From: Escherichia phage Psq-1
DNA: 44,183 bases
Sequence record: PQ595991.1
Reading direction: 5' to 3' (one strand)
The first letter of the stretch is position 1, and each line of letters starts with the position of its first letter. A program made the position numbers and the translations under genes. Shown here piece after piece: positions 1,550 to 42,955 of the stretch. The notes beneath the pieces were generated by a model, which was given only the letters and a program-made list of their open reading frames with translations, was not told the origin of the DNA and ran no database searches.

Positions 1550-2027
1550 CAACGGTCTACGATTTACGGCAGCATGGGAGGCTTTCAGCCCGGTGCCGTA
1601 TTTCGCGACCAAGAAAGAGCAGGCCCGCGGCCTGTACACCTGGGGTTATGGTCATACAGGCACTAATCCGCCTCGAAGCATTACCCGCGAGGAAGCGCTG
1701 GCACTGCTCAAGCGCGATGTGGCGTATGCCGAGGATTGGGTGAACAAATACGCGCATAAGAGCATTAACCAGGCGCAATTCGACGCGCTGGTGGATCTGG
1801 TAATCAATGCCGGTCCGGGTCCGATCGTACCGGATGATGTTGCGAATGATTTCGATGACGCGGTGCGGTTGGGTGACTGGGCGAAGGTCCGTGCTACTCT
1901 GCCGCAGTTCCGAAAACAAGGCGGTGAAGTGCTTAAGGGTCTGGTACGCCGTGCAATCGGCAGACAGGCGTTGTTTGATGGTAAGCAGTGGGACGTTGCC
2001 GAGCGAATCGGTCGTAACGCTGCATAA
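1536..2027 (+). CDS. endolysin, phage lysozyme (GH24-like)
   Basis: Motifs matching P22/T4-type lysozymes as I remember them: catalytic-region WEAF, TWGYGHTG (cf. TIGVGHTG), NQAQFDALVDLVINAG (cf. NQYDALCSLIFNIG), GRQALF. Confidence 0.85.
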   Translation: MRFSDNGLRFTAAWEAFSPVPYFATKKEQARGLYTWGYGHTGTNPPRSITREEALALLKRDVAYAEDWVNKYAHKSINQAQFDALVDLVINAGPGPIVPDDVANDFDDAVRLGDWAKVRATLPQFRKQGGEVLKGLVRRAIGRQALFDGKQWDVAERIGRNAA

Positions 2028-2043
2028 TACGAGGTGACACAAA

Positions 2044-2445
2044 ATGTTAGATTCGATCTTGCGACGTAAAGAACGCATTATCAAGACTCTGCCCGCAGTG
2101 CAGAACCCAGAAGCGCGCCGCATCCTGGCGGGGGATATGAATGTATCAGGCGTCTTCGACAAGGCCGTGCCTGAAGGGACGCCGGTGGCGAGCGCTACCG
2201 TTACCATCACGCCAGCTACCGCCGCAGTTGGTGAGACAGCCGCCGCGACTGTTGCCATCCTGCCATCCGGCGCGACCAACAAGGCCGGGTCGTGGGTGTC
2301 GGCTAACCCTAACCGCGCCTCAATCAATCCGACTACCGGCGAAATCACAGCGAAAGCAGCGGGTAACGTCCGCATCGTTTGGGTGGCGTCCGACGGTAGC
2401 GGGGTGCAGGCTGACGCAGGCTTCACAGTAACGGCAGCAGAGTAA
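2044..2445 (+). CDS. Ig-like (Big_2-type) domain protein (133 aa)
   Basis: C-terminal ~80 aa has the Big_2 pattern (VTITPATAAV...SWVSANPNRASINPTTGEITAKAAGNVRIVWVASDGSGVQADAGFTV). Confidence 0.45.
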   Translation: MLDSILRRKERIIKTLPAVQNPEARRILAGDMNVSGVFDKAVPEGTPVASATVTITPATAAVGETAAATVAILPSGATNKAGSWVSANPNRASINPTTGEITAKAAGNVRIVWVASDGSGVQADAGFTVTAAE

Positions 2446-2451
2446 ACCAAC

Positions 2452-2479
2452 AAGCCTGGTTAATTCCGGGCTTTTTATT
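2452..2479 (+). terminator. rho-independent terminator
   Basis: Stem AAGCCTGG / CCGGGCTT (one G-U pair), loop TTAATT, then TTTTTATT. Confidence 0.45.
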
Positions 2480-2682
2480 GCTTGACTTGCAACCAACATA
2501 GAGGCCATACTGCAACCAACCAATAAGAGGAGTAATCAAGATGGCACGTAACGATATTTGGGTATTAGCGATCTGGACCACCGCGGCTTTTATCGGCATG
2601 GTTATTTGCGAATTGATATAACCCGCCGCCATACGGACCGTGATATATTGTCCACGGTCCACTAATCAGGAATTAATTAAAT

Positions 2683-3825
2683 ATGCACCCGCAAACTAAA
2701 ATTACCGACGAGCAATTGACCGCAGAAATTCAGGCAGGGACTACGGTTAAAGAGATTGCGAAGGAATACGGCATTGCACTTCGTAACGTCTACATGCGCA
2801 AAGCCCGCCTGTCGAAAAAGGGGATTGGTCACGGCAATGATGCCGTGATCCGTAAGCGCGTTGCCGATGGTTTTGGGGTTAAGCGCGTATCGGCCCTGGT
2901 GCGCGGCAATGGCGAAGAGGTCATGTCGTGGGTCATCACTGAGCAGGACAAGGAGCGCCAACTCGAAGCCATGCGCGCTGTTGTCGAGGGTATGAACAGC
3001 GAAATCACACCGGCAGCGCCAGTAAACGCCCCGCCAGTCCCGATCCAGGCGCTCGACTTGCTCAACCTGTACACAGTGTCCGACTTCCACTTGGGAATGC
3101 TGGCATGGGGCGAGGAGACTGGCGAAGATTGGGATATGGCGATTGCTGAAGACCTGTTCTACCGCTGGTTTGTCGAAGCCTTCGCCCGCGCACCGGACGC
3201 AGGCACTGCCGTTATCAATATCCTCGGAGATATGGCCCACTTTGACAGCCTCGACGCCGTCACACCCGCCAGCGGTCACGTACTGGACGCGGATACCCGC
3301 TACCAGAAACTGGTCCGCTATATGATTCGCATGGTGCGCAACGTGGTTGACCTGGCGCTGCAAAAACACCACAAAGTAAAACTGCTAATCGTTCAGGGTA
3401 ATCATGACGAATCGGGTATGATTTGGCTTGCTGAGATGTTCAATACCCTGTATGAGAACGAGCCGCGCGTCGATGTGGACACGTCCCCGGACGTCTACAA
3501 AATGGTGCAGCACGGTAAGACCACGCTATTTTTCCACCACGGGCACAAAGCGCGATTCGATGTTATCGAGCAGGTTATGATCTCTAAATTCAGACAGGCG
3601 TTCGGGTCGAGCGAATACAGCTACGCGCACGTAGGCCATTTGCACCACCAGAAGATTGTCGAGTCTCGCAACATGATTGTTGAACAGCACCGGACGCTCG
3701 CAGCGAAAGACGCCTACGCCAGTCGTGGCGGTTGGATGTCCGGTCGCAGCGCCAACGTCATTACCTACAGCGCCAACTACGGCGAAGTAGCGCGCTTAAC
3801 CATTAGCCCGGAAATGTTGAAATGA
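2683..3825 (+). CDS. HTH domain fused to calcineurin-like metallophosphoesterase (380 aa)
   Basis: N-terminal ~110 aa with HTH-like TVKEIAKEYGIALRNVYMRKARL. C-terminal domain has all five metallophosphoesterase motifs: DFHLG (DxH), ILGDMAHFD (GDxxD), VQGNHDE (GNHD/E), FFHHGH, HVGHLHH (GHxH). Confidence 0.6.
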   Translation: MHPQTKITDEQLTAEIQAGTTVKEIAKEYGIALRNVYMRKARLSKKGIGHGNDAVIRKRVADGFGVKRVSALVRGNGEEVMSWVITEQDKERQLEAMRAVVEGMNSEITPAAPVNAPPVPIQALDLLNLYTVSDFHLGMLAWGEETGEDWDMAIAEDLFYRWFVEAFARAPDAGTAVINILGDMAHFDSLDAVTPASGHVLDADTRYQKLVRYMIRMVRNVVDLALQKHHKVKLLIVQGNHDESGMIWLAEMFNTLYENEPRVDVDTSPDVYKMVQHGKTTLFFHHGHKARFDVIEQVMISKFRQAFGSSEYSYAHVGHLHHQKIVESRNMIVEQHRTLAAKDAYASRGGWMSGRSANVITYSANYGEVARLTISPEMLK

Positions 3826-4034
3826 TCAGACAAGTATTCATGAGCACGCAGGCCACCCGCCTGGAAGAGCTACGCAAGCAACTAGAAGGCTTGCGCCGAT
3901 TTGAACGAACGGCAGCGGCAGTCGGAATGTCGATGGACGAGAGGATCGAAATACTGTCGCAAATACGCTACACAGAAGGAGCGATAAGAGAAGTACAAAG
4001 CATGTTAACCCGATACTACGGGCGCGACGTTTAA
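3822..4034 (+). CDS. hypothetical protein (70 aa)
   Basis: Track ORF with ATGA overlap to the upstream gene; helical composition, no motif recognised. Confidence 0.35.
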   Translation: MIRQVFMSTQATRLEELRKQLEGLRRFERTAAAVGMSMDERIEILSQIRYTEGAIREVQSMLTRYYGRDV

Positions 4035-4052
4035 ACCGCATAGCCTGCCGAT

Positions 4053-4081
4053 TTGGTGGGCTTTTTTGTGCCTGTTATAAT
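4053..4081 (+). promoter_or_regulatory. candidate sigma70 promoter with extended -10 (TGtTATAAT)
   Basis: TATAAT at 4076-4081 preceded by TGT; weak -35 TTGGTG at 4053-4058 with 17-bp spacer; upstream of the packaging genes. Confidence 0.35.
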
Positions 4082-4130: not shown

Positions 4131-4703
4131 ATGAACAAAAGGGCTTATATCATGGCAGAAATCAAAGTTAAGGGCCGACGCGCCAAACTGGACGGGCGAG
4201 TAGCAGTAACCCCGCGTCGTAAACCAGGCGAGCAAACAGAGCATACCAATCTCGGACCGGAAATCGAATACGGAAAGCGCCGTAAAGGCGGCAAATGTGG
4301 ACGACCTACTGACTACCGATCCGTTTACTGCGACCAGCTTCGCCGCTATTTTGCCGACGCCGACGCATGGCAGGTCAACTACTCCGATAAAGGCGCTGCG
4401 CAAGTAATCCCTCGCAACAAAATGCCGACCTTCGGTCGATTTGCCGCTGAAATCGGCGTAGGCGTAGCTTGCCTGTATCGCTGGGCGCGTGCGCATGAGG
4501 AGTTTGCCGAGGCGATGGCGGACGCAATGGAACTGCAGAAAACTTTCCTGATGGAAGCCGGTGGTGTGACCATCGCGGCAGGCTTCGCTACATTCCTGCT
4601 TAAAGCAAACCACGGCGTCCGCGACGATGTACCGCTGGATGACGACGAAGATGATAACGGCGACGTAGTTGTCGAACCTTCCGGCAAAGGCCAGGGTGAA
4701 TAA
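4131..4703 (+). CDS. terminase small subunit (putative)
   Basis: Position immediately upstream of TerL with TAATG overlap; HTH-like PTFGRFAAEIGVGVACLYRWARAHEEFAEA; acidic C-terminus. Start chosen at internal ATG 4131; track ORF opens at 4053. Confidence 0.6.
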   Translation: MNKRAYIMAEIKVKGRRAKLDGRVAVTPRRKPGEQTEHTNLGPEIEYGKRRKGGKCGRPTDYRSVYCDQLRRYFADADAWQVNYSDKGAAQVIPRNKMPTFGRFAAEIGVGVACLYRWARAHEEFAEAMADAMELQKTFLMEAGGVTIAAGFATFLLKANHGVRDDVPLDDDEDDNGDVVVEPSGKGQGE

Positions 4704-8707: not shown

Positions 8708-9029
8708 GTATGCAGCGATTGGACTGGTTATCGGTCTGGCGGTAGGATTCTGGTTAGGCGACTCCTATCGCGCTGGCGTAGTGGCGGAGGCGGCGCAAGA
8801 AGCGCAAGCCGAAGCCCAACGGCAGCAAACTAAAGTAATTGAGCGCTCCGTGCAGGCAGAACAAGCCCGCGACGTGGAATACCGGACTATCACAAAAGAG
8901 GTTGTTAAATATGTTACGCGCCCTAACCGCCCTGATTGTAGTTTTGATGCTGAGCGCGTGCGGATCAAGCAACGCGCCGTTGATGCCGCTAACGGAGTCG
9001 GCACTGCGACCGCCGTGCAAGTTCGATAG
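8700..9029 (+). CDS. i-spanin (Rz-like)
   Basis: N-terminal TM anchor IKYAAIGLVIGLAVGFWLG followed by an A/E/Q-rich coiled-coil segment; the o-spanin-like ORF is embedded in the +1 frame. Confidence 0.5.
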   Translation: MIKYAAIGLVIGLAVGFWLGDSYRAGVVAEAAQEAQAEAQRQQTKVIERSVQAEQARDVEYRTITKEVVKYVTRPNRPDCSFDAERVRIKQRAVDAANGVGTATAVQVR

Positions 9030-9141
9030 CCCGTCCGCAGACCCCGACGAGGATTTGATGATTGACGTGAAAAATATGGAATGCGGGGCGAAGCTAAGGG
9101 CGCAGGTGCTGGAGTTGCAGCAAATAATTAAGGGGCCGTAA
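8911..9141 (+). CDS. o-spanin (Rz1-like outer-membrane lipoprotein)
   Basis: ATG 8911 preceded by AAGAGG; signal peptide MLRALTALIVVLMLSAC with lipobox LSAC; Pro-rich mature part with extra Cys; overlaps and extends past the i-spanin frame. Confidence 0.55.
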   Translation: MLRALTALIVVLMLSACGSSNAPLMPLTESALRPPCKFDSPSADPDEDLMIDVKNMECGAKLRAQVLELQQIIKGP

Positions 9142-9153
9142 TGGCCCCTTTTT
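9131..9153. terminator. bidirectional rho-independent terminator between convergent genes
   Basis: AGGGGCC-GTAAT-GGCCCCT hairpin with TTTTT on the plus side and A-run on the other. Confidence 0.6.
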
Positions 9154-9155
9154 CG

Positions 9156-9920
9156 TTAGCGAGGAATGCCGCAAATCTCGTTGAGTGTTTTCACGTCCAG
9201 CGCCACTGCCGTGGATTTGGGCTTGTCCGTGTATGGGATGAATTGCTCGACTTCAGGCCATGCCTTAATCAGCTTCTTGTCTGTATTGTGCAGGTCCAGT
9301 ACACCGGTAACGGTGAGTTTGAACGCATCATACTTCGCGCGCAACTCGCGACGGGCTTTGTCGTTGCGGTCCAGGCGTTTGCAGAAATAATGATCTGCCG
9401 GGTAGTCTACGCGACCGCGAGGAAGATATATCGGCAACGCTTTCCCGTCCTCGTCCACTTCGCACACTGACGCTAACATAATTTCCTCATACCCAGGTAC
9501 GATATCACCGAGATCGGGCGAGAGATTATTCATATATTTCTCTTCCCAGTACCCGCGATGTATGCGGTGTTGGCGACCGTCGCCGCTCAATGACAAGGTG
9601 CGAACATTGCCGCCTGCGTTGATTTCAAAGGTGGCGTTATAGACGCTGCCGATACCCTTCGGGCGGTCGGAGTTATAACTATACGTCGCCTTGTTGGTGT
9701 ATACGCTGACGCCGTACATCTGCGACTGGTCATCGCGGATTAACAGGATATGCTCGCGTAGCGCGGCGAATGTGCGAATGCCGTCCGGCATACAGTCCAG
9801 CGTGATTGCGTACGCCAGGTCGCGAGAGTCCATCATGATTTGTTTGGCTTCGGTTGCGATTTCGTGGTCGCGCAGGATGTTAGCTAGGATCTGATTTTTA
9901 ATGTCTTTTGTCAGTCTCAT
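9156..9920 (-). CDS. hypothetical protein encoded antisense to the head module (254 aa)
   Basis: Start set at internal ATG 9920 with GAGGA 8 nt upstream; own upstream region with ATTGGTTGCA boxes and own terminator; no motif recognised. Confidence 0.5.
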   Translation of the reverse strand: MRLTKDIKNQILANILRDHEIATEAKQIMMDSRDLAYAITLDCMPDGIRTFAALREHILLIRDDQSQMYGVSVYTNKATYSYNSDRPKGIGSVYNATFEINAGGNVRTLSLSGDGRQHRIHRGYWEEKYMNNLSPDLGDIVPGYEEIMLASVCEVDEDGKALPIYLPRGRVDYPADHYFCKRLDRNDKARRELRAKYDAFKLTVTGVLDLHNTDKKLIKAWPEVEQFIPYTDKPKSTAVALDVKTLNEICGIPR

Positions 9921-10069
9921 TTTTGTGTCCTCATTGTTGGTGTGCAACCAATATAGCGCAACCAAGACAAGGATTGCAAGCTAATTTTGCGATTATTTTT
10001 ATCGCTGATAATATTAGAAGCGTGAAGTCGAGCGGGTGGCCTGCTCTGCCACAATCCCAGGGGGATAGC

Positions 10070-24300: not shown

Positions 24301-24781
24301 CACGTTTAACCATGCGGGTGGTAGCGCCACTTATAGCCTTAAGGCTGGCGTGACGTATAACGGGGCTTACTATGATGCCGGTATGCAGCTTTCAGTTGTT
24401 GCGGAAGGTGGCGCGGTTAAATCCCGCATCGCGTTCAAGGCGGACCAGTTCTACATCATGCACCCATCTAATGGGTCGCTTTCGTCCGCGTTTATCGTTG
24501 ACGGCGGTCAGGTGTACATTGACACCGCACGCATCAAGAACGCGTCTATCAACTTCGCGCAGATCACGGACACGCTGCAGTCGAATAACTGGAATCCAGG
24601 CAACAGTGGCTGGCGTATCGCGAAGGATGGCGGGGCGGAGTTCAACAACGTAACGGTACGAGGCAACTTGTTCGCTACTACTGGTAACTTCGGATTCTCT
24701 GGAGGGTCGGTACAGATCGACGCCACCGGCATTAACGTGCCGTTACCTGGCGGGGGTAGGGTGAAAGTGGGGACGTGGTAA
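21335..24781 (+). CDS. central tail fibre / host specificity protein (lambda J-like, 1148 aa)
   Basis: Size, position after the I-like gene, and N-terminal region typical of J-family tip proteins. Confidence 0.85.
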   Translation: MTIVYDVTGHKGGGGKQHTPQETPDSLHSLAKIRILLALGEGEFESITSASELRQRVYLDGTPIQNADLSENFPGARVEFRPGTQHQDVIHGFSAVESEQSVGVKLENGTPWVRQINDTSLDAVRVRIGIPALYTSEDNGDLVGGRIDYKIVVYTDNADPREFTFAAVGKTMSLYERDHRIELPPNVNTGWRVEVHRITADSTSAKVVNDIQVQSITEIIDARLRYPLTALLFVEFDAKAFQNIPRVSIKCKGRKVLIPNNYDPITHTYSGDWDGTFRRAWTDNPAWHWYDICITERFGLGRRIKPQMLNRYALYQIAQRCDQLVSDGNGGREIRFKNDMYIQSQTDAWTVLKDLAAIFAGMTWWGNQMLNIVSDQPVAAVSHTITNASVIDGRFDYASGSQKTRYSTFAVAYGNPKNHYDDAIATGQRVELVRRHKINRLDITAIGCTRESEAQRRGHWALISNQLDQQVSFKVGMEGLFFIPGSVVAIADTNISGGFETRGGRLLSDPGTRTVLNTDSEITFRPGDKFLVRTDSGNVETREIASVNGNKVTLKTALDADPIPDQPFCVDGDDIQLQKFRITDLEYDDSTSTFSVRGIEYNDSKYDAVDNGARLDPGIFTQVPDGVMKGPESVTITPSQISSQGQLITNVDIVFPPVKDAVVYEIQWRRTSLQNMAVQWGNDWVNIPRTASNGAHIPNVFSGNYQARVRAIGMGEISSPWVSSAITPVEGRLGGLNAPIITIAISGLHQILWKWNHNNAATDISYTELEVRKTGETEWKFLTNVPYPGAEYAQTSLEFGIYQQLRARVADKIGNLSDWSAPFEGQVSDKVDEYMKGLDDEFLTSEDGKHFQEAIDTIPQGIYESMLTDAQQLINARSEYQGIYAEIKVAYNVATDAHKAVAQLETLIGTRLDDAEASIHTLQTAQSTHEQAFAQYQQTVAAKFGEQEAAIQQVQTATADVAGALAEYKTQVAAQFGQQSAAIEQKMTSTFNHAGGSATYSLKAGVTYNGAYYDAGMQLSVVAEGGAVKSRIAFKADQFYIMHPSNGSLSSAFIVDGGQVYIDTARIKNASINFAQITDTLQSNNWNPGNSGWRIAKDGGAEFNNVTVRGNLFATTGNFGFSGGSVQIDATGINVPLPGGGRVKVGTW

Positions 24782-24788
24782 AGGAGAA

Positions 24789-24810
24789 GGGGCCATCCGG
24801 CCCCTTTTTT
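24789..24810. terminator. bidirectional rho-independent terminator
   Basis: GGGGCC-ATCC-GGCCCC hairpin with TTTTTT downstream on plus and an A-run on the other side, between convergent genes. Confidence 0.6.
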
Positions 24811-25774
24811 AATAGATGTTAGGAATTACGAGTAACGGGGTGGGTACTGCAATATTTTTACCCGGCATTTGGAATTGCTGCCGTGAATAGTTGCCGATTA
24901 CCCGGTTTTTGGCAATGCGCACATTACCGCCTGCCATTCGAATCCCGTTCATTCGAACGTGATTGTAGCCGCCGTTGTTCTCAATGAGCGCGCCGGTATA
25001 CGAAAGCTGGACCAGGCTATTGCCTATGTACTGATCGCCGCCGCCGATATAGATAAGGCGGTCATAAACAAATGGCTTATTCACTGTTGAGAACGTGACC
25101 TGACCCTGGTTGTTTGTCATGGTTATGCCGTTTCCAGGGGTGGGTGGCGTATTGTTGAATATAACCAGGTCCATTTCAACGGCAGCGCCTACGTCGTCAA
25201 TCCCACCATAGGACGCATTACGGACGATAATACTTCCGCCATCGAAGCCGACCGACACGTTTCCGTCGTCCCAGCGCGCGAATGGGACACCACCTACAGG
25301 TAACGGCATACTTCCGTTCACCCACACGCGCTGCGCATATTGGCAGGTCATTAGCCTGGATACATTTGATATGGCGGTGAAGTCCGTCGAGTTCGCCACC
25401 AGTAACCCTGCGTTGCGCGAACCCACCGGCAACACTTCCATGATCACCCCGCCCCATGTTGGAAGCCCGCTATATGCGCCATATGCGTCTTCACCTCGCA
25501 AGGTGATTCCGCCATCCCCGTTACGTTGTACTGAGGTGACGTAGAAAGGGTCGGGCAAGACCAGTGTCTGGTCGAATACTTCTATAACTTCAACGGGGCT
25601 TGTGAGCGCGACGACCAGATCTGACCCTGGCGTTAGCTGAGTGTTAATAGTAAGCGTCTTATCAGACTGGCAGCGCTGATAGAATGAGGTACAGAATGAC
25701 GGAGCGCGAAGTCCGGCTGTTATCTCCATCACCGGCCTTCCGTCGTTGTAGTCTATAAGTATTCCAGCGCCCAT
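24809..25774 (-). CDS. hypothetical Gly/Asn-rich protein, possible receptor-binding protein (321 aa)
   Basis: ATG 25774 with GGGAG upstream, overlapping the stop of the lipoprotein gene; beta-rich composition (GGGDQYIGNS, NNGGYNH); antisense between J and the tail fibre. Product assignment is by analogy only. Confidence 0.4.
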   Translation of the reverse strand: MGAGILIDYNDGRPVMEITAGLRAPSFCTSFYQRCQSDKTLTINTQLTPGSDLVVALTSPVEVIEVFDQTLVLPDPFYVTSVQRNGDGGITLRGEDAYGAYSGLPTWGGVIMEVLPVGSRNAGLLVANSTDFTAISNVSRLMTCQYAQRVWVNGSMPLPVGGVPFARWDDGNVSVGFDGGSIIVRNASYGGIDDVGAAVEMDLVIFNNTPPTPGNGITMTNNQGQVTFSTVNKPFVYDRLIYIGGGDQYIGNSLVQLSYTGALIENNGGYNHVRMNGIRMAGGNVRIAKNRVIGNYSRQQFQMPGKNIAVPTPLLVIPNIY

Positions 25775-25776
25775 AA

Positions 25777-25998
25777 TTACCACTCCCGAGATTTAACTGA
25801 TACCGTACCAGAGAAGTTGCCGTCACTATCCGCGGACAGGCCGGTGAAGCGCATGTCGACCTCCCCAGCAGGGACTTTTTGCCCGTCAACGTAGCGCAAC
25901 ATGCAGCTTCCGTAAGCTACCGTAATGCAATCGCCGTTGTTACGCTCTACCGCGCAGCCGGACAGAAGAACCGCACAAATCACAATTAATGTTTTCAT
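25777..25998 (-). CDS. small lipoprotein, Llp/Cor-like superinfection-exclusion candidate (73 aa)
   Basis: ATG 25998 with AGGGGA upstream; signal peptide MKTLIVICAVLLSGC with lipobox LSGC; four further Cys in the mature part. Confidence 0.6.
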   Translation of the reverse strand: MKTLIVICAVLLSGCAVERNNGDCITVAYGSCMLRYVDGQKVPAGEVDMRFTGLSADSDGNFSGTVSVKSREW

Positions 25999-26078
25999 GG
26001 TATCATCCCCTATATTTGGTTGAGTTTTAGTATTGCACCGCTCAACCAAGAATGCAACCAATTTATGAGGATTCAGCT

Positions 26079-27719
26079 ATGGCAGCGGGTACACTATCCG
26101 TAACGAATAACAGCAAGGCGGTTGTCGGGGTAGGCACGACGTTTACCACGTTTACCGCTGGCGACTTCTTAACTCTGGTGGTGGGGCAAGTGCCTTACAC
26201 TGTTGCTATCGCGTCCGTCGAAAGCGACACCGCGATTACGCTTGTGCTTCCGTTCGACGGCCCCACGGCAACCGGCCTCGCGTGGGATGGCGTTAAGCGC
26301 GATACCATGTCGCTGGCAACGATGGGCGTAACAGTACAGGCACAGAAAGCGTTGCGCTTGATGATCGCTGACGAAAACAACTGGCGTGCAATCTTCGGAG
26401 ACGAAGAAGAAGTCACGGTAACGCTGCCGAACGGGCAAGTTATGCAAGGTATGGCATGGGGCTACCTGTCACAATTGATGAGGCAGATCGACCCCGTTGA
26501 AATGCGCAACCTGCAACAACAAGCCGCGGCATCTGAAGCAGCAGCGCAAGGATTTCGCAATGAGGCCGAAGGCTTCAAGACTGAGACGGCGGGGATCCGC
26601 GACGCCACCAACCAGATTAAGGCGGATACGCAGGCTATCCGCGACGCCACCAACCAGATTAAGGCGGATACGCAGGCTATCCACGACGCCACCAATACCA
26701 TCAAGACGCAGACGGCCCAGATTAAGACTGACACCGGCGTTATTCGCGATGAGGCCAATGCCGCGAAGGCTGAAGCGCAATCCGCCCGAGATGCCGCGCT
26801 GGGATATCGGAACGAGGCCGAACAATTCAAGAATGAGATTGACCCGTCTAACTTTCTGGCAAAGGGTGGCAACCTGGCTGGGTTAACTGACTTGTCCGAG
26901 TCGCGGGATAACTTGGGTTTAGGAGCGTTGGCGACTAAAGATTCGGCGGCGCTAAACTCCACAGATACGACCGGTATTCTGCCCTTAGATAAGGGCGGTT
27001 TAGGCGCTGGTACCATCCCTGGCGCACGGGAGACGATGCATATTTATGGTCATGACGCTACGTTCGGGACCATAAATAATATCCTCACATACTTCAACAA
27101 TATTGCGGGTAACGGCGGACTCTTCTCGTTTCGAGATGGTGCCGTTGACGCCACTAACACCTACAAATTCGGCTCAGCAATACTGTTTCGCTCAGCCGAC
27201 ACCTACGGACTGTTAAGTGTTGACCACAACAACGGAAACGTTAGAGCATCCGGTGGTGTAGTTTCTGGTGGGATCGCGGCCACAGCATACATCAACAACC
27301 TGTGGGGTACGCGTAACACCACCGTAGACGGTAACGGGTTTATTAAAACCGCGTCGCCCATCGTCAAGATCTTCAGTGACGGTGCCGCGGAGACTAACGA
27401 CGAGGCCGAAGGCGTTACGGTGACTCGCATATCTGCGGGGGTGTATGTTGTGGAGGGGTGTCTAGGCCTCAACTCAGACCCATCCTGGGGCGGGCCTGAC
27501 GGCGGGATTGAGATTCCGACGGACGTGAACAAGCAGCCTCGTTTATGGGTTGATTATAAAGTGCGCGCTGACGGCTCTGTGGAGGTACGCACATACCACC
27601 GAACACACCCACACGCTCCAGCATTCGCAAGAAATGAGATAGAAGGTGTGGCGGAAGGGGACCCGGTTGATATACCGCGTGGCACGTTCATATCTGTTCG
27701 GGTTAATATGCCTGAGTAA
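26079..27719 (+). CDS. tail fibre protein (546 aa)
   Basis: ATG 26079 with GAGGA upstream; coiled-coil shaft with 14-aa repeats (IRDATNQIKADTQA), Gly-rich C-terminal domain. Confidence 0.7.
   Translation: MAAGTLSVTNNSKAVVGVGTTFTTFTAGDFLTLVVGQVPYTVAIASVESDTAITLVLPFDGPTATGLAWDGVKRDTMSLATMGVTVQAQKALRLMIADENNWRAIFGDEEEVTVTLPNGQVMQGMAWGYLSQLMRQIDPVEMRNLQQQAAASEAAAQGFRNEAEGFKTETAGIRDATNQIKADTQAIRDATNQIKADTQAIHDATNTIKTQTAQIKTDTGVIRDEANAAKAEAQSARDAALGYRNEAEQFKNEIDPSNFLAKGGNLAGLTDLSESRDNLGLGALATKDSAALNSTDTTGILPLDKGGLGAGTIPGARETMHIYGHDATFGTINNILTYFNNIAGNGGLFSFRDGAVDATNTYKFGSAILFRSADTYGLLSVDHNNGNVRASGGVVSGGIAATAYINNLWGTRNTTVDGNGFIKTASPIVKIFSDGAAETNDEAEGVTVTRISAGVYVVEGCLGLNSDPSWGGPDGGIEIPTDVNKQPRLWVDYKVRADGSVEVRTYHRTHPHAPAFARNEIEGVAEGDPVDIPRGTFISVRVNMPE
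26595..26678 (+). repeat. perfect 42-bp tandem duplication inside the tail fibre gene
   Basis: ATCCGCGACGCCACCAACCAGATTAAGGCGGATACGCAGGCT twice (26595-26636, 26637-26678), followed by a degenerate third unit. Confidence 0.85.
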
Positions 27720-27731
27720 AGCATAATGCGA

Positions 27732-27753
27732 AGGGGCCATTCGGCCCCTTTTT
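27732..27753. terminator. bidirectional rho-independent terminator
   Basis: AGGGGCC-ATTC-GGCCCCT hairpin followed by TTTTT, between convergent genes. Confidence 0.6.
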
Positions 27754-28932: not shown

Positions 28933-28961
28933 ACTATAGTGCAACCAACTATTGGTTGCAA
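28933..28961 (-). promoter_or_regulatory. sigma70-like promoter overlapping an inverted ATTGGTTGCA pair
   Basis: Minus strand reads TTGCAA (-35), 17-bp spacer, TATAGT (-10). The inverted repeat TGCAACCAA-CTA-TTGGTTGCA (28940-28960) overlaps it. Confidence 0.4.
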
Positions 28962-39312: not shown

Positions 39313-39822
39313 TTAGTCTTCCAGTTCGAAATAGGTTTCGACGATTTCTTTCAGATCTTTGTGGAAGTCTTCGACGTCGTCATCTTCCAGTTTAGCGATT
39401 GATTTGATCTCGAACGATTCCAGCAGGTCGTCAAATTCGTCGTTGGCGTCGTCGTCATCACCACCGGCGATAATCGCGGCATACTGTTTGATTTCGTCGC
39501 GCATCTCTGCCAGCGGATCGGCATCTTTCTTACCTTTGCCTTTCGCCGTGGCTTTTTTACCTTTCGCCGGTTTTTCGTCTTCGGCTTCATCGTCGTCATC
39601 TTCTACGACTTCTTTTTTGGCCTTACCTTTCGCCGGTGCTTTTTTGGTTTTCGCCGGTGCTTCGTCTTCAGCGTCGTCATCTTCTACGACTTCTTTTTTC
39701 GCCTTAGACGGCTTCTTGTCTTCCTGCGTACCAACGGCAGCGCCAACGGTTTCATAATGTTTAGCGATTGTTTCCAGTGCTACTACGCCGCGAGTAATCA
39801 GGTTTACGATTTGTTCAAACAT
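39313..39822 (-). CDS. highly charged tandem-repeat protein (169 aa)
   Basis: ATG 39822 with GGAGA upstream; two 26-27-aa repeats KKEVVEDDD-EDE-PAK-KKA-AKGK-KK plus acidic D/E runs; nucleotide-level tandem repeat at about 39540-39720. Confidence 0.5.
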   Translation of the reverse strand: MFEQIVNLITRGVVALETIAKHYETVGAAVGTQEDKKPSKAKKEVVEDDDAEDEAPAKTKKAPAKGKAKKEVVEDDDDEAEDEKPAKGKKATAKGKGKKDADPLAEMRDEIKQYAAIIAGGDDDDANDEFDDLLESFEIKSIAKLEDDDVEDFHKDLKEIVETYFELED

Positions 39823-40018
39823 GGTATATCTCCGATTGGTTAAGTTTAGGTGTCGACCATTAACTTCGTCGGTGGCCTTAACATATTGCCAGGTTACGCG
39901 TTCTCCCGTTCGGGTAGTGGACCTGGTTATATAATCACGGTTGGGAATCCTGACACTTCGATCCGGCCCCTGCGTTGCCCCTCTCCAGTTTGCGTCCTGC
40001 ATCCTGTCGACGAGGTGA

Positions 40019-40047
40019 ATATTAGATTGGTTGCATGAGGGAGTCAA
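40019..40047 (-). promoter_or_regulatory. sigma70-like promoter for the minus-strand early/replication operon
   Basis: Minus strand reads TTGACT (-35), 17-bp spacer containing TGCAACCAA, TAATAT (-10). Confidence 0.4.
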
Positions 40048-40059
40048 CAACTAATTTCA

Positions 40060-40115
40060 AAAAAAAAGCGCCGAAGCAAAATGCGACGGCGCTAACCAAT
40101 AAGAGACAATGAGAC
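40060..40115 (-). ncRNA. candidate small RNA (~56 nt)
   Basis: Minus-strand promoter TTGAAA-17-AATAAT (40122-40150) followed about 55 nt later by terminator hairpin GCGCCG...CGGCGC and a 9-U tract (plus 40059-40092); no ORF. Confidence 0.25.
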
Positions 40116-40163
40116 GGGGGTATTATTACACGCGTGCGCGCCCGTTTCAATATTCCAAAGGAG

Positions 40164-40192
40164 TTGACACCCTGCGGTTTTAGGTGTAGTTT
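40164..40192 (+). promoter_or_regulatory. sigma70-like promoter for the HTH and primase genes
   Basis: Perfect -35 TTGACA (40164-40169), 17-bp spacer, weak -10 TAGTTT (40187-40192). Confidence 0.4.
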
Positions 40193-40223
40193 CGTTGGTC
40201 ATTAACCAACCGGAGACAGAACA

Positions 40224-40553
40224 ATGAATATCGACGACGCAATCGAAATGTTAACTAAGACTGTTTGCAGTGAGACTAGCCGGTCTTGGGCATATACAGA
40301 TGCCGTTGGGGCGGTGCTATTTGAAATCGAACGTCTGCGACTTACCGAAAAAGAATTGCGCGCGAAGCTGGAATTACTCAACGGTACGGCAGCCAGCAAG
40401 CTGCAAAAGCACAATGAAGAAATGGAAGAATACAAAAAACAGGTTATCCGTTTGCGCGATGAGGGGAAGTCATGGGCGATGATCGCCGAGTTGACAGGAA
40501 TTAATCAGAGCACCGTGCGCTCCTGGGTACGCAATAACAAAACTTCGAAATAA
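40224..40553 (+). CDS. HTH domain protein, putative regulator (109 aa)
   Basis: C-terminal HTH GKSWAMIAELTGINQSTVRSWVRNNK; coiled-coil middle; first gene of the plus-strand early unit. Confidence 0.5.
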   Translation: MNIDDAIEMLTKTVCSETSRSWAYTDAVGAVLFEIERLRLTEKELRAKLELLNGTAASKLQKHNEEMEEYKKQVIRLRDEGKSWAMIAELTGINQSTVRSWVRNNKTSK

Positions 40554-40723
40554 GGCAACGGCAATGAGCTTAATTAAATTCGCTGTAACAAGACCCTCAT
40601 GGGCGATGATCGCCGAGTTGACAGGAATTAATCAGAGCACCGTGCGCTCCTGGGTACGCAATAACAAAACTTCGAAATAAGGCAACGGCAATGAGCTTAA
40701 TTAAATTCGCTGTAACAAGACCC
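40470..40723. repeat. exact 127-bp tandem duplication (40470-40596 and 40597-40723)
   Basis: Both copies read identically by eye; they span the last 28 codons of the HTH gene and the first 11 codons of the primase gene. Confidence 0.9.
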
Positions 40724-42955
40724 GCTAAAAAAGGCGAAAAAGCCAGGGCGGAAAACTTCCAGATGACAACTGATGAATTTTTCGAATTTATCAATGACGC
40801 GAAAGAAATCTCATCGGTGCACATCAACAAGACCGAGGATAAAGCTGAGTATGCGCGCCGCAAGCGCAAGGCCGATGGCATCGTGGCATATACCAGTGAC
40901 GGCCTACGCCGTAAGACCAGCGCGGTGGACCGCTCGATCCTGTTCTTTGATATTGACCGCACCGACACTCGCACCTTGCGCCGCTGCCGTAAGGCGTTCA
41001 TTGACGCGGGTCTGGAACACGTATTCCACACAACCACCGGCGATCGCCACCCGCTGAAAGGCGGCACGCGTTGCGCCCGTTTCCTTGTGCTCACAGATAA
41101 ACCAGTACCGGCGGAAGACCTGGGCCGCGTCCAGTACGCGCTGTTAGACCAACTTGGTCTGTCAGATGTGGACTTCGACGATTGTACGAAGGACACAAAC
41201 CGTCTTATGTACCTGCCACACCAGCAGTCTGTCATTAAGTGCCACCACGGCAAACGTGCCAATGTGCGGCGTCTGCTACGCCTGGCGGATAAGCTGGGAG
41301 TGGAGAAAGAGGAAGTACGCCGCGAGCTTACCCAGGGCGACGACGCAGTGGCGGACGGGATTCTGGACTGGTGCTTCCAGGCAGGATTCGAGGAGTTATC
41401 TTCCGGTCGCGGTTATGAAGTTCCGTGCCCGAACGAACATCTGCACAGCGGCGAAGGGTCGACGGCTATCATGGTCAAGGATGGCGAGATCCGTTTCAAG
41501 TGTATGCACACCGGCAACGAGTGTTGCTCGGAGCTAAATAGACACCAGCACCTTGCGCTACGTCTCATCGGGATACCGGACCACCTGAACGTCGAGCCGC
41601 ACAACATGTCACGTAAGCAAATCGCCGCCATCCTGCCAGGTCTGGACGACGAGGAAGTCGAATCCTTATATGACCACATTGTTGATGCGGTTGGCGACGG
41701 CGAAGAATATGGCGTGTGCACCGATGCGGATCTTGATAACGAGCCGGTTGCGCTGTTCAGTAAGCACGACCCGATCATCGAGGGGTTGATTAACTTTAAA
41801 TCGACCTGGTACATGGCGGGTGAGTCGAATATCGGTAAGTCTTTCTATGTGCTGGGGCAGATGGGCGCGGTTGCCGCCGGTATTCCGTTTGGCGGTGCGA
41901 AGGTCGTCCAGTCGCATTGCTTCTATTTCGATGCGGAAGGCGGCGAAGCCTCCAACCAGCGCAAAGAAGCATTGCAGATTAAATATGAGCACGACCTGGA
42001 CAAGCTGCACATTATAGACCTGCAGTCACGCGGCTGGGATATCACCAGCAAGTCCGGTTTGCGCGAAGTTATCAGCTTTATCAACCGCACCGCTAACGGC
42101 GAACCGGTTGGCCTGGTGGCGTTCGACTCACTTAACCAGACTGTTGCGCTGCGGTCCGCCGATGCTAAACCGTTTGACGAGAACAACGCCAGCGATATGG
42201 GAGAAGTGGTCAAAGCGCTGAAAGCCATTGCGGAAAATACAGGTGGCAGTGCGGGCGTCATCCACCACCCGGCGAAAGGTGCAAACGGCAGCAGAACCCC
42301 ACGCGGATCCGGCGCACTGCATGGTGCTGTCGATTCAGCTTTCTTCCTGGAACAGCCGGACGACAACCAGCCAGGACAACTCAACCTGTATCACGAAAAA
42401 TCACGTAATGGCATCAAGCAAGCGCCGCGTGGCTTCGTCCTGCTCAAGTGCAAGGTGGAGGTGGATCTCCGCAAGTCAGAAGCGTTCGCGTCGCACCAGT
42501 CCACCAGCACCGGGCCGGACTTCGGAGACGTCGTTGCCGGTTGGGACGTCAAACCAATTGCGTCCACCCCGCGCGACGAGACTCTGTACCTCGTACCAGT
42601 AGCCCTGGCACCGTTCGCTATAGAACAGGCAAAGGCCGCTGGCAAAGCCGCAGTTAAGGAAGAAAACGCCGCCGGTCCGCGCAACGAAAAAGAGAAAGTG
42701 CTTTATGCGGCCCTGGAAAAACTGATGGAAGATAACCCTAACCATACTGGATTCAGTAAATCGGCAATTGTCCGCCAGGCGGGACTCGCGAAGGGTGGTA
42801 CTTCGACGAAAGCAATCGACGATATGGTGGAGCGTGGCGTGATTGGTTTTTATACAGATCCGCACACCGGGGCCATATATGGGTCGTCGAATTTAGTCAT
42901 CAAATCGGATATTCCCATAACGCTTTCGGCGACCGACGACGACCTGAAGGATTAA
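40691..42955 (+). CDS. DNA primase/helicase-type replication protein (754 aa)
   Basis: Zn-binding-like HLHSGEGS...FKCMHTGNECC; P-loop GESNIGKS and Walker B-like LVAFDSLNQ in the C-terminal half. Confidence 0.6.
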   Translation: MSLIKFAVTRPAKKGEKARAENFQMTTDEFFEFINDAKEISSVHINKTEDKAEYARRKRKADGIVAYTSDGLRRKTSAVDRSILFFDIDRTDTRTLRRCRKAFIDAGLEHVFHTTTGDRHPLKGGTRCARFLVLTDKPVPAEDLGRVQYALLDQLGLSDVDFDDCTKDTNRLMYLPHQQSVIKCHHGKRANVRRLLRLADKLGVEKEEVRRELTQGDDAVADGILDWCFQAGFEELSSGRGYEVPCPNEHLHSGEGSTAIMVKDGEIRFKCMHTGNECCSELNRHQHLALRLIGIPDHLNVEPHNMSRKQIAAILPGLDDEEVESLYDHIVDAVGDGEEYGVCTDADLDNEPVALFSKHDPIIEGLINFKSTWYMAGESNIGKSFYVLGQMGAVAAGIPFGGAKVVQSHCFYFDAEGGEASNQRKEALQIKYEHDLDKLHIIDLQSRGWDITSKSGLREVISFINRTANGEPVGLVAFDSLNQTVALRSADAKPFDENNASDMGEVVKALKAIAENTGGSAGVIHHPAKGANGSRTPRGSGALHGAVDSAFFLEQPDDNQPGQLNLYHEKSRNGIKQAPRGFVLLKCKVEVDLRKSEAFASHQSTSTGPDFGDVVAGWDVKPIASTPRDETLYLVPVALAPFAIEQAKAAGKAAVKEENAAGPRNEKEKVLYAALEKLMEDNPNHTGFSKSAIVRQAGLAKGGTSTKAIDDMVERGVIGFYTDPHTGAIYGSSNLVIKSDIPITLSATDDDLKD

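Follow-up and report, generated by a model that had tools for sequence, protein, structure and literature searches.

The metallophosphoesterase gene and its cassette

The genome of Escherichia phage Psq-1 (PQ595991.1) is that of a Dhillonvirus, an HK578-like coliphage. In the window, i.e. the whole stretch of 44,183 nucleotides that was analysed, the gene for a helix-turn-helix (HTH) metallophosphoesterase (MPE) is surrounded by the following features, of which the promoter- and terminator-like sites within 2452-4062 are consensus matches only.

2452..2473, + strand: terminator-like hairpin with T-run, after the Big_2 gene; 8 pairs, 5 of them G-C, tail TTTATTGC
2482..2511, + strand: sigma-70-like match TTGACT-18-CATACT at 9/12 positions, a count that by itself is not above chance
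2488-2497 and 2511-2520, + strand: two direct copies of TGCAACCAAC, starts 23 bp apart, overlapping the promoter-like site
2541..2621, + strand: hydrophobic ORF of 26 aa, MARNDIWVLAIWTTAAFIGMVICELI, with GAGGAG upstream; accessory, of variable presence
2638..2650, + strand: extended -10-like element CCGTGATATATTG (TG-n-TATATT), about 33 nt 5' of the ATG
2683..3825, + strand: coding sequence of the HTH-MPE protein, ATG at 2683, TGA at 3823-3825, 380 aa; PHROG 704
3840..4034, + strand: ORF of 64 aa (HK578 gp60, PHROG 20931), variable among Dhillonviruses
4042..4062, + strand: terminator-like hairpin with T-run that closes the cassette; 9 pairs, tail TTTTTGTG
4131-4703: small terminase gene, downstream of the 4042-4062 hairpin

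The gene had been described as standing alone behind its own terminator. The hairpin at 2452-2473 does form the upstream boundary of the cassette and is also found in HK578-type loci, but the gene is not alone: the 26-aa ORF, the MPE gene and the 64-aa ORF share one terminator-bounded unit, 2452-4062. With tblastn the 26-aa ORF was found at 12 loci, all in records or contigs of Dhillonviruses, which partly stem from the same phage; it is absent from L014, L016, L017 and L021 and has no PHROG match. The 64-aa ORF is missing from L009, L014, L016 and L017. Several Dhillonviruses thus keep the MPE gene without the 64-aa ORF; on this ground the idea that the latter is an obligatory partner, or an immunity protein, was rejected. 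Dhillonviruses without the Big_2 gene and both small ORFs retain the MPE gene together with its immediate upstream element, and around this gene only these local flanks differ from one Dhillonvirus to another.

The sigma-70-like site at 2482-2511 is kept only in those Dhillonviruses that have the 26-aa ORF. The block at 2638-2650, on the other hand, is invariant or nearly so in 11 of 11 Dhillonvirus sequences, even where the DNA further upstream is divergent, and is probably the MPE gene's own promoter. It sits in the loop formed by an inverted repeat (2635-2642 / 2653-2660) that is imperfectly conserved. The hairpin 2635-2660 was considered as a terminator or operator and rejected, since conservation is confined to its loop, which holds the extended -10-like sequence, and does not include the arms.

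A pair of boxes spelled ATTGGTTGCA had also been reported upstream of the gene. The pair exists; its spelling is off by one base (it reads GTTGGTTGCA on the strand opposite to TGCAACCAAC), and it is not specific to this gene. Allowing at most one mismatch, the motif occurs at 11 sites in the window, compared with 3.6 expected, and none of 100 shuffles contained 11 or more. The TGCAACCAA boxes are real and belong to a genome-wide intergenic motif. Nothing was found to support binding of the GCAACCAA motif by the HTH of the MPE protein.

Domain architecture of the product

The 380-aa protein is divided as follows.

2707..2817, + strand: three-helix HTH of resolvase / LuxR / sigma-region-4 type, residues 9-45
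2872..3000, + strand: family-specific beta-hairpin and helix with invariant W83, residues 64-106
3058..3822, + strand: binuclear MPE core with motifs I-V, residues 126-380
3082-3096, + strand: motif DFHLG, residues 134-138
3226-3246, + strand: motif GDMAHFD, residues 182-188
3397-3411, + strand: motif GNHDE, residues 239-243
3529-3546, + strand: motif FFHHGH, residues 283-288
3634-3648, + strand: motif GHLHH, residues 318-322

The combination of an HTH with a five-motif MPE, as proposed in the original prediction, is confirmed, and the motifs lie at the positions given there. They follow the superfamily order DxH / GDxx(D/H) / GNH(D/E) / H / GHxH, and the product has the alpha/beta sandwich of the MPE fold. 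In an alignment of 37 relatives with 33-80% identity, D134, H136, G182, D183, D188, N240, H241, H286, G287, G318 and H321 are invariant, and for H186, D242, H285, H288 and H319 conservation is 90% or higher; judged from this alignment, the conservation of the five motifs is far beyond chance. The Pfam gathering thresholds are nevertheless missed (Metallophos_2, 23 vs 27 bits; Metallophos, 20.8 vs 21.5), and Metallophos matches at E <0.01 in only 10 of the 37 relatives. The Pfam models do not capture so divergent a family, whose membership among the MPEs rests on motifs and fold. Sequence searches of solved structures, with the single protein or with a 37-sequence profile, gave repeat-protein noise and weak GerE-type HTH matches; a Pseudomonas MPE nuclease was matched at motif III only (E 2.5). 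NCBIfam gave nothing better than noise (matches to the UhpA C-terminus, to ECF sigma region 4 and, at E 0.59, to PdeM). The core also contains a conserved loop specific to the family, VTPASGHVLDADTR (residues 193-206), where the structural model has low confidence. The MPE is complete and probably active.

The N-terminal ~110 aa had been taken for a separate domain with an HTH-like helix pair. The HTH is present, with helices at residues 9-17, 22-29 and 33-45, but it is not the whole of this region, as the N-terminal 125 residues also hold the beta-hairpin and helix. Pfam HTH matches are weak in the 380-aa protein (GerE 0.021, HTH_7 0.044) and significant among its relatives (Sigma70_r4_2 1.5e-9, GerE 2.4e-8). 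For the module of residues 64-106 no structural match was found. The N-terminal domain is a DNA-binding fold of the sequence-specific type.

Distribution of the family and gene neighbourhoods

Both the gene and its family are already catalogued. The PHROG 704 profile ("DNA repair exonuclease", a name that is an annotation by similarity) matches residues 5-380 over positions 2-390 of 390 with E 1.2e-160. In the literature searched, no exonuclease assay on any PHROG 704 member was found, and the only functional mention of a family member is in a preprint on DRT7 (bioRxiv 10.64898/2026.02.16.706125). The product is, by similarity, the orthologue of HK578 gp59 and T1 gp16. Nucleotide identity of the gene to HK578 and 011D5 is 94-95%, and the protein is 98% identical to database entries that number in the hundreds. 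HK578 gp59, T1 gp16/ST16, Bas01_0050 and the "putative phosphoesterase" of Jerseyvirus and Kagunavirus all belong to the same family as the Psq-1 protein. T1 gp16 (377 aa) is likened to it by its PHROG 704 annotation, its length and its setting with terminators on either side.

A DNA-binding fusion of this kind had been called unusual. This did not hold: besides the full-length match to PHROG 704, HTH-MPE relatives are present in 2,075 phage records and 4,657 clusters at 50% identity, and in 142 of 146 family representatives the N-terminal extension is kept, with at least 100 residues preceding motif I. HTH plus MPE is the norm in a huge phage family. The original prediction had named beforehand, as the outcome that would speak against it, that profile searches place the N-terminal region within a known nuclease family; in the profile comparison this region belongs to the conserved portion of a family that carries a nuclease annotation.

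The description of the gene as moron-like was not supported either. Promoter- and terminator-like sites of its own are there; sporadic presence and atypical composition are not. The protein occurs in 152 phage records at 95-99% identity (megablast with the gene gave 158 records), the GC content of 0.53-0.58 matches that of the neighbours, and dN/dS amounts to 0.02-0.05, i.e. strong purifying selection, with the catalytic site under more constraint than the HTH. What varies instead are the flanking small ORFs. The MPE gene is a conserved core gene of Dhillonviruses, more than 150 records of which contain it, and is core in several phage groups.

Its position is a different matter. In T1-likes the gene lies before the lysis genes, in Kagunavirus on the opposite strand within the tail module, and elsewhere in replication modules. 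A role in packaging, suggested by the adjacent small terminase gene, was rejected for this reason, the gene's place differing between phages. The neighbours are dam, helicase and VRR-NUC in T1-likes, SSB and an RNaseH-like protein in a Vibrio phage, a Holliday-junction resolvase and ligase in a Campylobacter phage, and a DNA methyltransferase and dNMP phosphatase in a Ruegeria phage. In Kagunavirus and Jedunavirus a HAD_PNKP phosphatase (PF25109, E 1e-19 to 1e-21) directly follows the MPE gene; only in Kagunavirus is this followed by a P-loop kinase (PHROG 139 "dNMP kinase", E 1e-43). The MPE-HAD_PNKP arrangement recurs in 16 viral-contig loci, all from the group with 73-76% identity (Kagunavirus/Jerseyvirus-like). 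A "Rad50 ATPase" label in phage SBP was considered as pointing to a Rad50 partner; as the SBP protein is without any Pfam family, the label is not evidence for one. With the HAD_PNKP phosphatase of Kagunavirus and Jedunavirus, the P-loop kinase and the "Rad50-like" protein as queries, tblastn found no homologue in the window. The window genome does encode a recombination module, a family-A-like DNA polymerase and methyltransferases.

Function and comparison with known systems

Bas01_0050 and the product of 2683-3825 share 43% identity along their full length (E 8e-104). Four Bas1 escapers of DRT7_Ec had Bas01_0050 altered by missense or frameshift mutations; frameshift mutants still plaque, so the gene is dispensable in the laboratory, and co-expression was impossible owing to the protein's toxicity in E. 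coli (bioRxiv 10.64898/2026.02.16.706125). Among the lambda escapers in the DRT7 screen gam, coding for the RecBCD inhibitor, was mutated (bioRxiv 10.64898/2026.02.16.706125), which points to DNA-end biology. Toxicity, dispensability and the link to DRT7 are carried over from this homologue and would apply to the Psq-1 protein by analogy. As circumstantial evidence for an attack on host DNA, PUA-Cal-HAD, which senses the m6-dAMP from phage-induced chromosome degradation, restricts Bas12, a T1-like phage; no report of host DNA degradation by Dhillonviruses was found in the literature searched.

From the observed architecture, conserved metal ligands, family distribution, purifying selection and fold neighbours we infer, with a probability of about one half, an HTH-tethered, Mn/Mg-dependent DNA nuclease for host takeover or DNA-end processing, the DNA substrate and the chemistry being the inferred part. 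A nuclease of Mre11/SbcD type was among the options of the original prediction and is favoured by the fold search; its statement that function is undecidable from sequence alone is upheld. The enzyme would use two metals (Mn2+/Mg2+) and belong, as a phosphodiesterase that cleaves DNA, to the Mre11/SbcD/PolD-DP1-like branch of the metallophosphoesterase superfamily; a flexible linker would tether it to its N-terminal resolvase/LuxR-type HTH. Probably expressed from its own extended -10 promoter, with a timing that we can only presume, it would in its likely role, host takeover, attack or degrade the host chromosome, the presumed target, and feed nucleotide salvage; relatedly, it may make or process DNA ends. 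By analogy with Bas01_0050 the gene would be dispensable for laboratory plaques, yet it is strongly selected in nature, and the activity of the enzyme would harm E. coli and be what DRT7/UG10 responds to.

A DNA nuclease is consistent with the canonical ligands (unchanged, or conserved to 90% or more, in the 37 relatives), with the Mre11-like spelling of the motifs and the absence of PPP signatures, with the DNA-binding fold in 142 of 146 representatives and with neighbours in other phages that belong to DNA and nucleotide metabolism. The toxicity of Bas01_0050 and its DRT7 escapers point the same way, and T5 A1 provides a precedent. However, a Rad50/SbcC-like partner is missing from the HK578 annotation and from beside the gene, the Mre11 capping domain is lacking, T5 A1 is not detectably related beyond motif III, and the salvage and repair neighbours of other lineages are absent from the window.

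A tentative second reading, which we hold to be distinctly less probable than even, is a repair or recombination nuclease, i.e. a stand-alone Mre11-like enzyme that would trim or open ends or replication intermediates of phage DNA, not attack that of the host, and would support recombination-dependent replication together with the exonuclease (HK578 gp41) and the annealing protein (gp40). It draws on the same fold evidence, on the public annotation "DNA repair exonuclease" and on the recombination module of the window; the resolvase and ligase or SSB and RNaseH-like protein beside the gene in other phages also speak for it, and the co-selection of lambda gam among the DRT7 escapers suggests DNA-end metabolism. 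Yet a Rad50-like ATPase is missing from the HK578 annotation and from beside the gene, the homologue's frameshift mutants still plaque, toxicity on sole expression better fits an aggressive nuclease, and an HTH of sequence-specific type is unexpected in an end-processing enzyme.

It is improbable that the MPE is an end-healing phosphoesterase, the MPE component in a split repair set of Pnkp type, which removes 2',3'-cyclic or 3'-phosphates or trims damaged termini so that breaks from host nucleases can be religated. In the bacterial Pnkp of Clostridium thermocellum an MPE domain performs end healing; the HAD_PNKP phosphatase next to the gene in Kagunavirus and Jedunavirus, the P-loop kinase that comes after it in Kagunavirus and the 16 contig loci of like arrangement also speak for this reading. 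However, neither neighbour has a homologue in the window, the match to "dNMP kinase" suits nucleotide salvage equally, and the gene has no linked ligase; moreover, a healing enzyme should not be toxic, and with an RNA substrate the HTH would be unexplained.

That the protein is an anti-defence phosphodiesterase which destroys immune signals (cyclic oligonucleotides, cCMP/cUMP or ADPR-derived), as had been suggested, found no support and seems quite unlikely. Dispensability in a defence-poor laboratory host is typical of anti-defence genes, but the homologue is instead what DRT7 responds to: it is toxic and triggers a defence rather than inhibiting one. The DNA-binding HTH is retained in nearly all members, the gene is core across several phage groups instead of sporadic, and neither PADLOC nor a known anti-defence family gave a match. 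In PADLOC the profiles, including those of calcineurin-type effectors, did not match up to E 0.1; this weighs little here, because PADLOC holds defence and not anti-defence proteins.

A transcription regulator with enzymatic output, whose HTH binds phage promoters, for instance at the TGCAACCAA boxes, while the MPE modulates or executes, is very unlikely. The HTH belongs to a class that transcription factors use; upstream of the cassette there are two TGCAACCAAC boxes, and many promoter-like intergenic regions of the genome carry the motif. Yet the motif is absent from Kaguna- and Jersey-type loci, where the proteins are 73-81% identical (51-66% in the N-terminal 125 residues); some Dhillonviruses lack the upstream boxes with the gene unchanged; the catalytic site is more constrained than the HTH; and nothing ties the motif to the MPE protein over other phage DNA-binding proteins. 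Finally, a calcineurin/lambda-PPase-like phosphatase of host phosphoproteins, for which the superfamily name and the sub-threshold Pfam matches to "calcineurin-like phosphoesterase" might speak, can hardly be meant, as the PPP signatures GDxHG, GDxVDRG and GNHE are not in the sequence and an HTH is present. PPP phosphatases have the superfamily fold and its binuclear-metal chemistry in common with the product.

The preferred DNA nuclease has its nearest counterparts in Mre11, SbcD and T4 gp47. The motifs of Mre11 are spelled DxHLG and GDxxH, and the Psq-1 protein agrees with this group in the order of its metal motifs and in this spelling. Phage Mre11-type enzymes such as T4 gp46/47 act in host DNA breakdown and recombination. 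The identity to Mre11/SbcD, however, is only 13-17% over 180-190 aligned residues, and the Mre11 capping domain is missing, the protein ending with its MPE core at residue 380. The annotation of the collinear HK578 genome lists no Rad50/SbcC partner, and none lies beside the gene in the window. Conversely, the HTH and hairpin module and the VTPxSGHxLDAD loop occur in this family and not in Mre11/SbcD. Archaeal PolD DP1, a 3'-5' proofreading exonuclease, differs in its OB-fold and N-terminal domains, which are absent here, and there is no such polymerase partner.

T5 A1 (PHROG 1745, pre-early) resembles the product in having an N-terminal DNA-binding region and C-terminal MPE-type motifs, and HTH Pfam matches are found in its relatives. 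It is described as an N-terminal DNA-binding domain plus a C-terminal endonuclease domain and triggers retron Eco2, a reverse-transcriptase-based defence (PMC12916289); a predicted metallophosphatase, it is toxic and both necessary and sufficient for host DNA degradation (bioRxiv 10.64898/2026.04.02.716235). In contrast to the 380-aa product, whose homologue tolerates frameshifts, T5 A1 has 556 aa, is essential and is encoded on the first-step-transfer DNA. Homology was considered and rejected: with the single sequence and with a 26-sequence profile the probability was 20-22%, the 22% being that of hhalign between the family alignment and the T5 A1 alignment, with 56 columns around motif III only, and in the PHROG search T5 A1 matched only PHROG 1745, which the product does not match. 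As no relation is detectable beyond motif III, the likeness is analogy and not homology.

A bolder extension of the DNA-nuclease reading, rather unlikely in our estimate, is that the family is a general, hitherto unrecognised nuclease with which siphoviruses of the T1-like, Dhillon-, Jersey- and Kaguna-types attack the host genome, and so a functional counterpart of T5 A1. The HTH would guide the enzyme to host DNA; phage DNA would be spared, for example by phage methyltransferases, which lie near the gene in T1-like and Ruegeria phages and are also encoded by Psq-1; and the DNA products would be the signal for reverse-transcriptase defences such as DRT7/UG10. Of the phage enzymes with no tested function, this family, which includes a member from the classic phage T1, is one of the most widespread. 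An HTH-guided host-DNA nuclease would account for host takeover in several groups of therapeutic phages and would provide a defined trigger for the poorly understood DRT7/UG10 defence. It would then represent, beside T5 A1, a second and independent example of the design in which a DNA-binding domain is combined with a metallophosphoesterase.

Family membership and conservation

The 1.7-kb region around the metallophosphoesterase (MPE) gene shares 94-95% DNA identity with the Escherichia phages HK578 and vB_EcoS_011D5 and with more than 100 further Dhillonvirus records, and the whole window is collinear with the HK578 gene map. The window is thus a complete or near-complete Dhillonvirus genome. 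With blastn, no counterpart of HK578 gp06, gp23, gp24, gp37, gp42, gp45 or gp51 was found in it, and the HK578 tail-fibre gene gp25 matched over its first 447 nt only; mosaic replacement regions lie at about 9029-10069, 24686-26078, 26526-27751 and 39626-40940 and include the receptor-binding end of the fibre. Over the MPE region, the record OQ221563.1 ('Acinetobacter phage NJ01', with A. baumannii as host) shares 94% identity with E. coli Dhillonviruses, and its host label looks doubtful.

The MPE gene is the orthologue of HK578 gp59, an ORF annotated, depending on the record, as 'DNA repair exonuclease', 'putative phosphoesterase' or 'hypothetical protein'. Its product is a full-length match to PHROG 704 (profile positions 2-390 of 390, E = 1.2e-160) and is 98% identical to a database cluster with 510 member sequences. 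Judged by sequence, the gene is thus already known, a near-identical copy of catalogued proteins with a named PHROG. Relatives were found by tblastn in 2,075 of 50,697 phage records, 1,681 of them with a query coverage of at least 80%, and include Dhillonvirus, Jerseyvirus, Kagunavirus, T1-like Drexlerviridae, Klebsiella Webervirus-type, Vibrio, Rhizobium and Ruegeria phages. When 1.84 billion cluster representatives were scanned exhaustively with HMMER, 4,657 matched at E<=1e-3 and 1,133 at E<=1e-30, mostly proteins of 370-420 aa. The classic phage T1 has a family member as well (gp16/ST16), likewise flanked by terminators.

Compared with 13 Dhillonvirus orthologues, dN/dS was 0.02-0.05 over the whole gene; the N-terminal 125 residues gave 0.03-0.13 and the catalytic part 0.01-0.035. 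The GC content is that of the neighbouring genes. Together with the wide distribution across records, this speaks against the original prediction that the gene is moron-like. Nor is the DNA-binding fusion unusual, contrary to what had been proposed: the PHROG match is full-length, and 142 of the 146 representatives with a locatable motif I have at least 100 residues before it (median 142).

Domain architecture and active site

All five MPE motifs are present in canonical order:

Residues 134-138: motif I, DFHLG
Residues 182-188: motif II, GDMAHFD
Residues 239-243: motif III, GNHDE
Residues 283-288: motif IV, FFHHGH
Residues 318-322: motif V, GHLHH

Conservation was scored on a MAFFT alignment of 37 relatives with 33-80% identity. 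D134, H136, G182, D183, D188, N240, H241, H286, G287, G318 and H321 were invariant, and H186, D242, H285, H288 and H319 were at least 90% conserved. With the Pfam MPE models the protein scored slightly below the curated thresholds. The AlphaFold2 model built from the 37-relative alignment was confident (mean pLDDT 85, pTM 0.73) and can be superposed on many solved MPE structures.

Within the first 45 residues there are three helices (9-17, 22-29 and 33-45), which a low-confidence linker (residues 48-55) connects to the remainder of the model. HTH models matched the window protein weakly (GerE 0.021, HTH_7 0.044) and its relatives significantly (Sigma70_r4_2 1.5e-9, GerE 2.4e-8; HTH_8, HTH_28 and HTH_23 too). 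The order of the motifs, the conserved ligands, the helices and the matches in relatives thus bear out the proposed combination of a five-motif MPE with an N-terminal HTH. Residues 64-106 form a conserved beta-hairpin and helix with an invariant W83; a structural match to this element was sought and none was found. The loop VTPASGHVLDADTR (residues 193-206, nt 3259-3300) ranks with the best-conserved parts of this family (T194 is invariant, and conservation is at least 90% at L201, D202 and R206), yet its pLDDT in the model is below 50. Possibly it acts as a substrate-binding lid and becomes ordered only on substrate.

Transcription unit and intergenic boxes

Between two terminator-like hairpins lies a unit of three ORFs:

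2452-2473: terminator-like hairpin
2482-2511: sigma-70-like match
2541-2621: ORF, 26 aa, hydrophobic (MARNDIWVLAIWTTAAFIGMVICELI); its ribosome-binding site, GAGGAG, is strong
2683-3825, plus strand: MPE gene, 380 aa (ATG at 2683, stop codon at 3823-3825)
3840-4034: ORF, 64 aa (HK578 gp60, PHROG 20931), product probably a coiled coil
4042-4062: terminator-like hairpin

The 26-aa ORF is about 96% identical among the Dhillonvirus loci that have it, is missing from others and matched no PHROG. The 64-aa ORF is missing from several Dhillonviruses (loci L009, L014, L016 and L017). Phages of the L014 type have neither of these ORFs nor the Big_2 gene, a variable gene upstream of the first hairpin, and their MPE gene is still 98% identical. 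In an alignment of 11 Dhillonvirus upstream regions, the stretch between the terminator and the 26-aa ORF is swapped in several, and the DNA upstream of 2638-2650 is mosaic. The block CCGTGRTATATTG at 2638-2650 shows little or no variation in any of the 11. It holds an extended -10-like element, CCGTGATATATTG (TG-n-TATATT), about 33 nt 5' of the MPE start codon, and this form and position suggest that the block is the gene's own promoter.

A pair of boxes, called TGCAACCAA, had also been noted upstream of the MPE gene. Two copies are indeed there, reading TGCAACCAAC, at 2488 and 2511, but they are not gene-specific. With one mismatch allowed, the window holds 11 sites against 3.6 expected, a number reached by none of 100 shuffles, and 10 of the 11 fall within intergenic regions or on their borders. 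Of the 8-mer core GCAACCAA the genome has 19 copies, against about 1.3 expected when a random 8-mer is counted on both strands, and nearly all copies are intergenic (2488, 2511, 9943, 9958, 26053, 28940/28951, 30599, 30617, 37125, 37141, 40026, 42968, 43003, 43366 and 43397; both strands). The core usually reads TGCAACCAAY, with ATA or CTA after it. Copies often form direct pairs 14-35 bp apart; one pair is palindromic (28940-28960), and one copy, near 40026, is within the divergent early promoter region. HK578 also has 19 core copies, many in corresponding places, and T1 has 8; the motif was absent from the fetched Kaguna-, Jersey-type and T1-like swan01 loci. This pattern points to a genus-wide regulatory motif, probably an operator or promoter element of a putative Dhillonvirus regulator.

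Predicted function and known systems

The best-supported reading, to which we assign a probability of roughly one half, is that the window protein is an HTH-tethered, two-metal DNA nuclease. DxHLG and GDxxH are the Mre11 spelling of motifs I and II, and the window protein shares both; the signatures of the PPP phosphatases, in contrast, are absent from it. The fold search favours a nuclease, by a small margin, and thus does not prove it. The AlphaFold2 model has no capping domain, and no Rad50/SbcC-type partner is present among the annotated genes of the collinear HK578 genome or beside the MPE gene. No PDB entry is related to the protein at the sequence level, and PADLOC profiles gave no match.

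The neighbourhoods in other lineages all belong to DNA or deoxynucleotide metabolism:

T1-like phages: helicase, VRR-NUC and dam upstream, lysis genes downstream
Vibrio phage: SSB and an RNaseH-like gene upstream
Campylobacter phage (HTH-less version): Holliday-junction resolvase and ligase upstream
Ruegeria phage: DNA methyltransferase and dNMP phosphatase downstream
Kagunavirus and Jedunavirus: HAD_PNKP-type phosphatase (PF25109) directly downstream, followed in Kagunavirus by a P-loop kinase matching PHROG 139 'dNMP kinase'

The Kagunavirus arrangement was found in 16 fetched viral-contig loci, all from the 73-76%-identity group (IMG/VR, e.g. L022 and L037). In Kagunavirus, as in Raoultella phage RP180 (L004, 4995-7161) and these 16 loci, the MPE gene is the first of a three-gene cassette with phosphatase and kinase, inserted within the tail-gene module in opposite orientation. 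The window holds no homologues of this phosphatase and kinase.

The data show the architecture, the conserved active site, the family membership, the selection and the fold neighbours. Substrate, chemistry, target and timing of the predicted nuclease are what we infer, and attack on or degradation of host DNA is the role that we prefer for it. The main alternative is that it processes phage DNA ends. The neighbourhoods fit DNA degradation with salvage and end repair alike and do not distinguish between the two.

A phenotype is available for Bas01_0050, the homologue in phage Bas1 (MZ501051), which also belongs to PHROG 704 and shares 43% full-length identity with the window protein (E = 8e-104). 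Four spontaneous Bas1 escapers of DRT7_Ec had missense mutations or frameshifts in it; the DRT7/UG10 preprint terms it 'a nucleic acid-targeting phosphoesterase' and reports that its toxicity in E. coli made co-expression with the defence system impossible, and gam was the gene mutated in lambda escapers in the same screen (10.64898/2026.02.16.706125). Hence there is a PHROG 704 member that the phage can do without in the laboratory, that harms the cell and that a defence system needs in order to act. For the window protein, toxicity, dispensability and the link to DRT7 are read across from this homologue. The function of PHROG 704, a large family that includes T1 and has acquired a phenotype only now, is the remaining point of interest.

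That T1-like phages, which carry PHROG 704 members, degrade host DNA is suggested by circumstantial evidence: PUA-Cal-HAD senses m6-dAMP from phage-induced chromosome degradation and restricts the T1-like phage Bas12. For host DNA degradation by T5, the predicted metallophosphatase A1 is necessary and sufficient, and it is toxic alone (10.64898/2026.04.02.716235). A1, a trigger of retron Eco2, has been described as an N-terminal DNA-binding domain with a C-terminal endonuclease domain (PMC12916289). Its relatives (proteins P0343-P0385; A1 itself lies at 1706-3376 of the T5 locus L008) have precomputed Pfam matches to HTH_23, HTH_38, HTH_7 and the CENP-B N-terminal domain, and GDxH, NHH, SNHD, HGH and GHTH are invariant in an alignment of 26 of them. 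These matches and motifs mark A1 as a second, separate HTH+MPE phage family. As a candidate relative of the present family, A1 reached a profile-profile probability of 22%, over 56 columns around motif III only. T5 A1 is thus best regarded as an architectural analogue of the window protein rather than as a relative.
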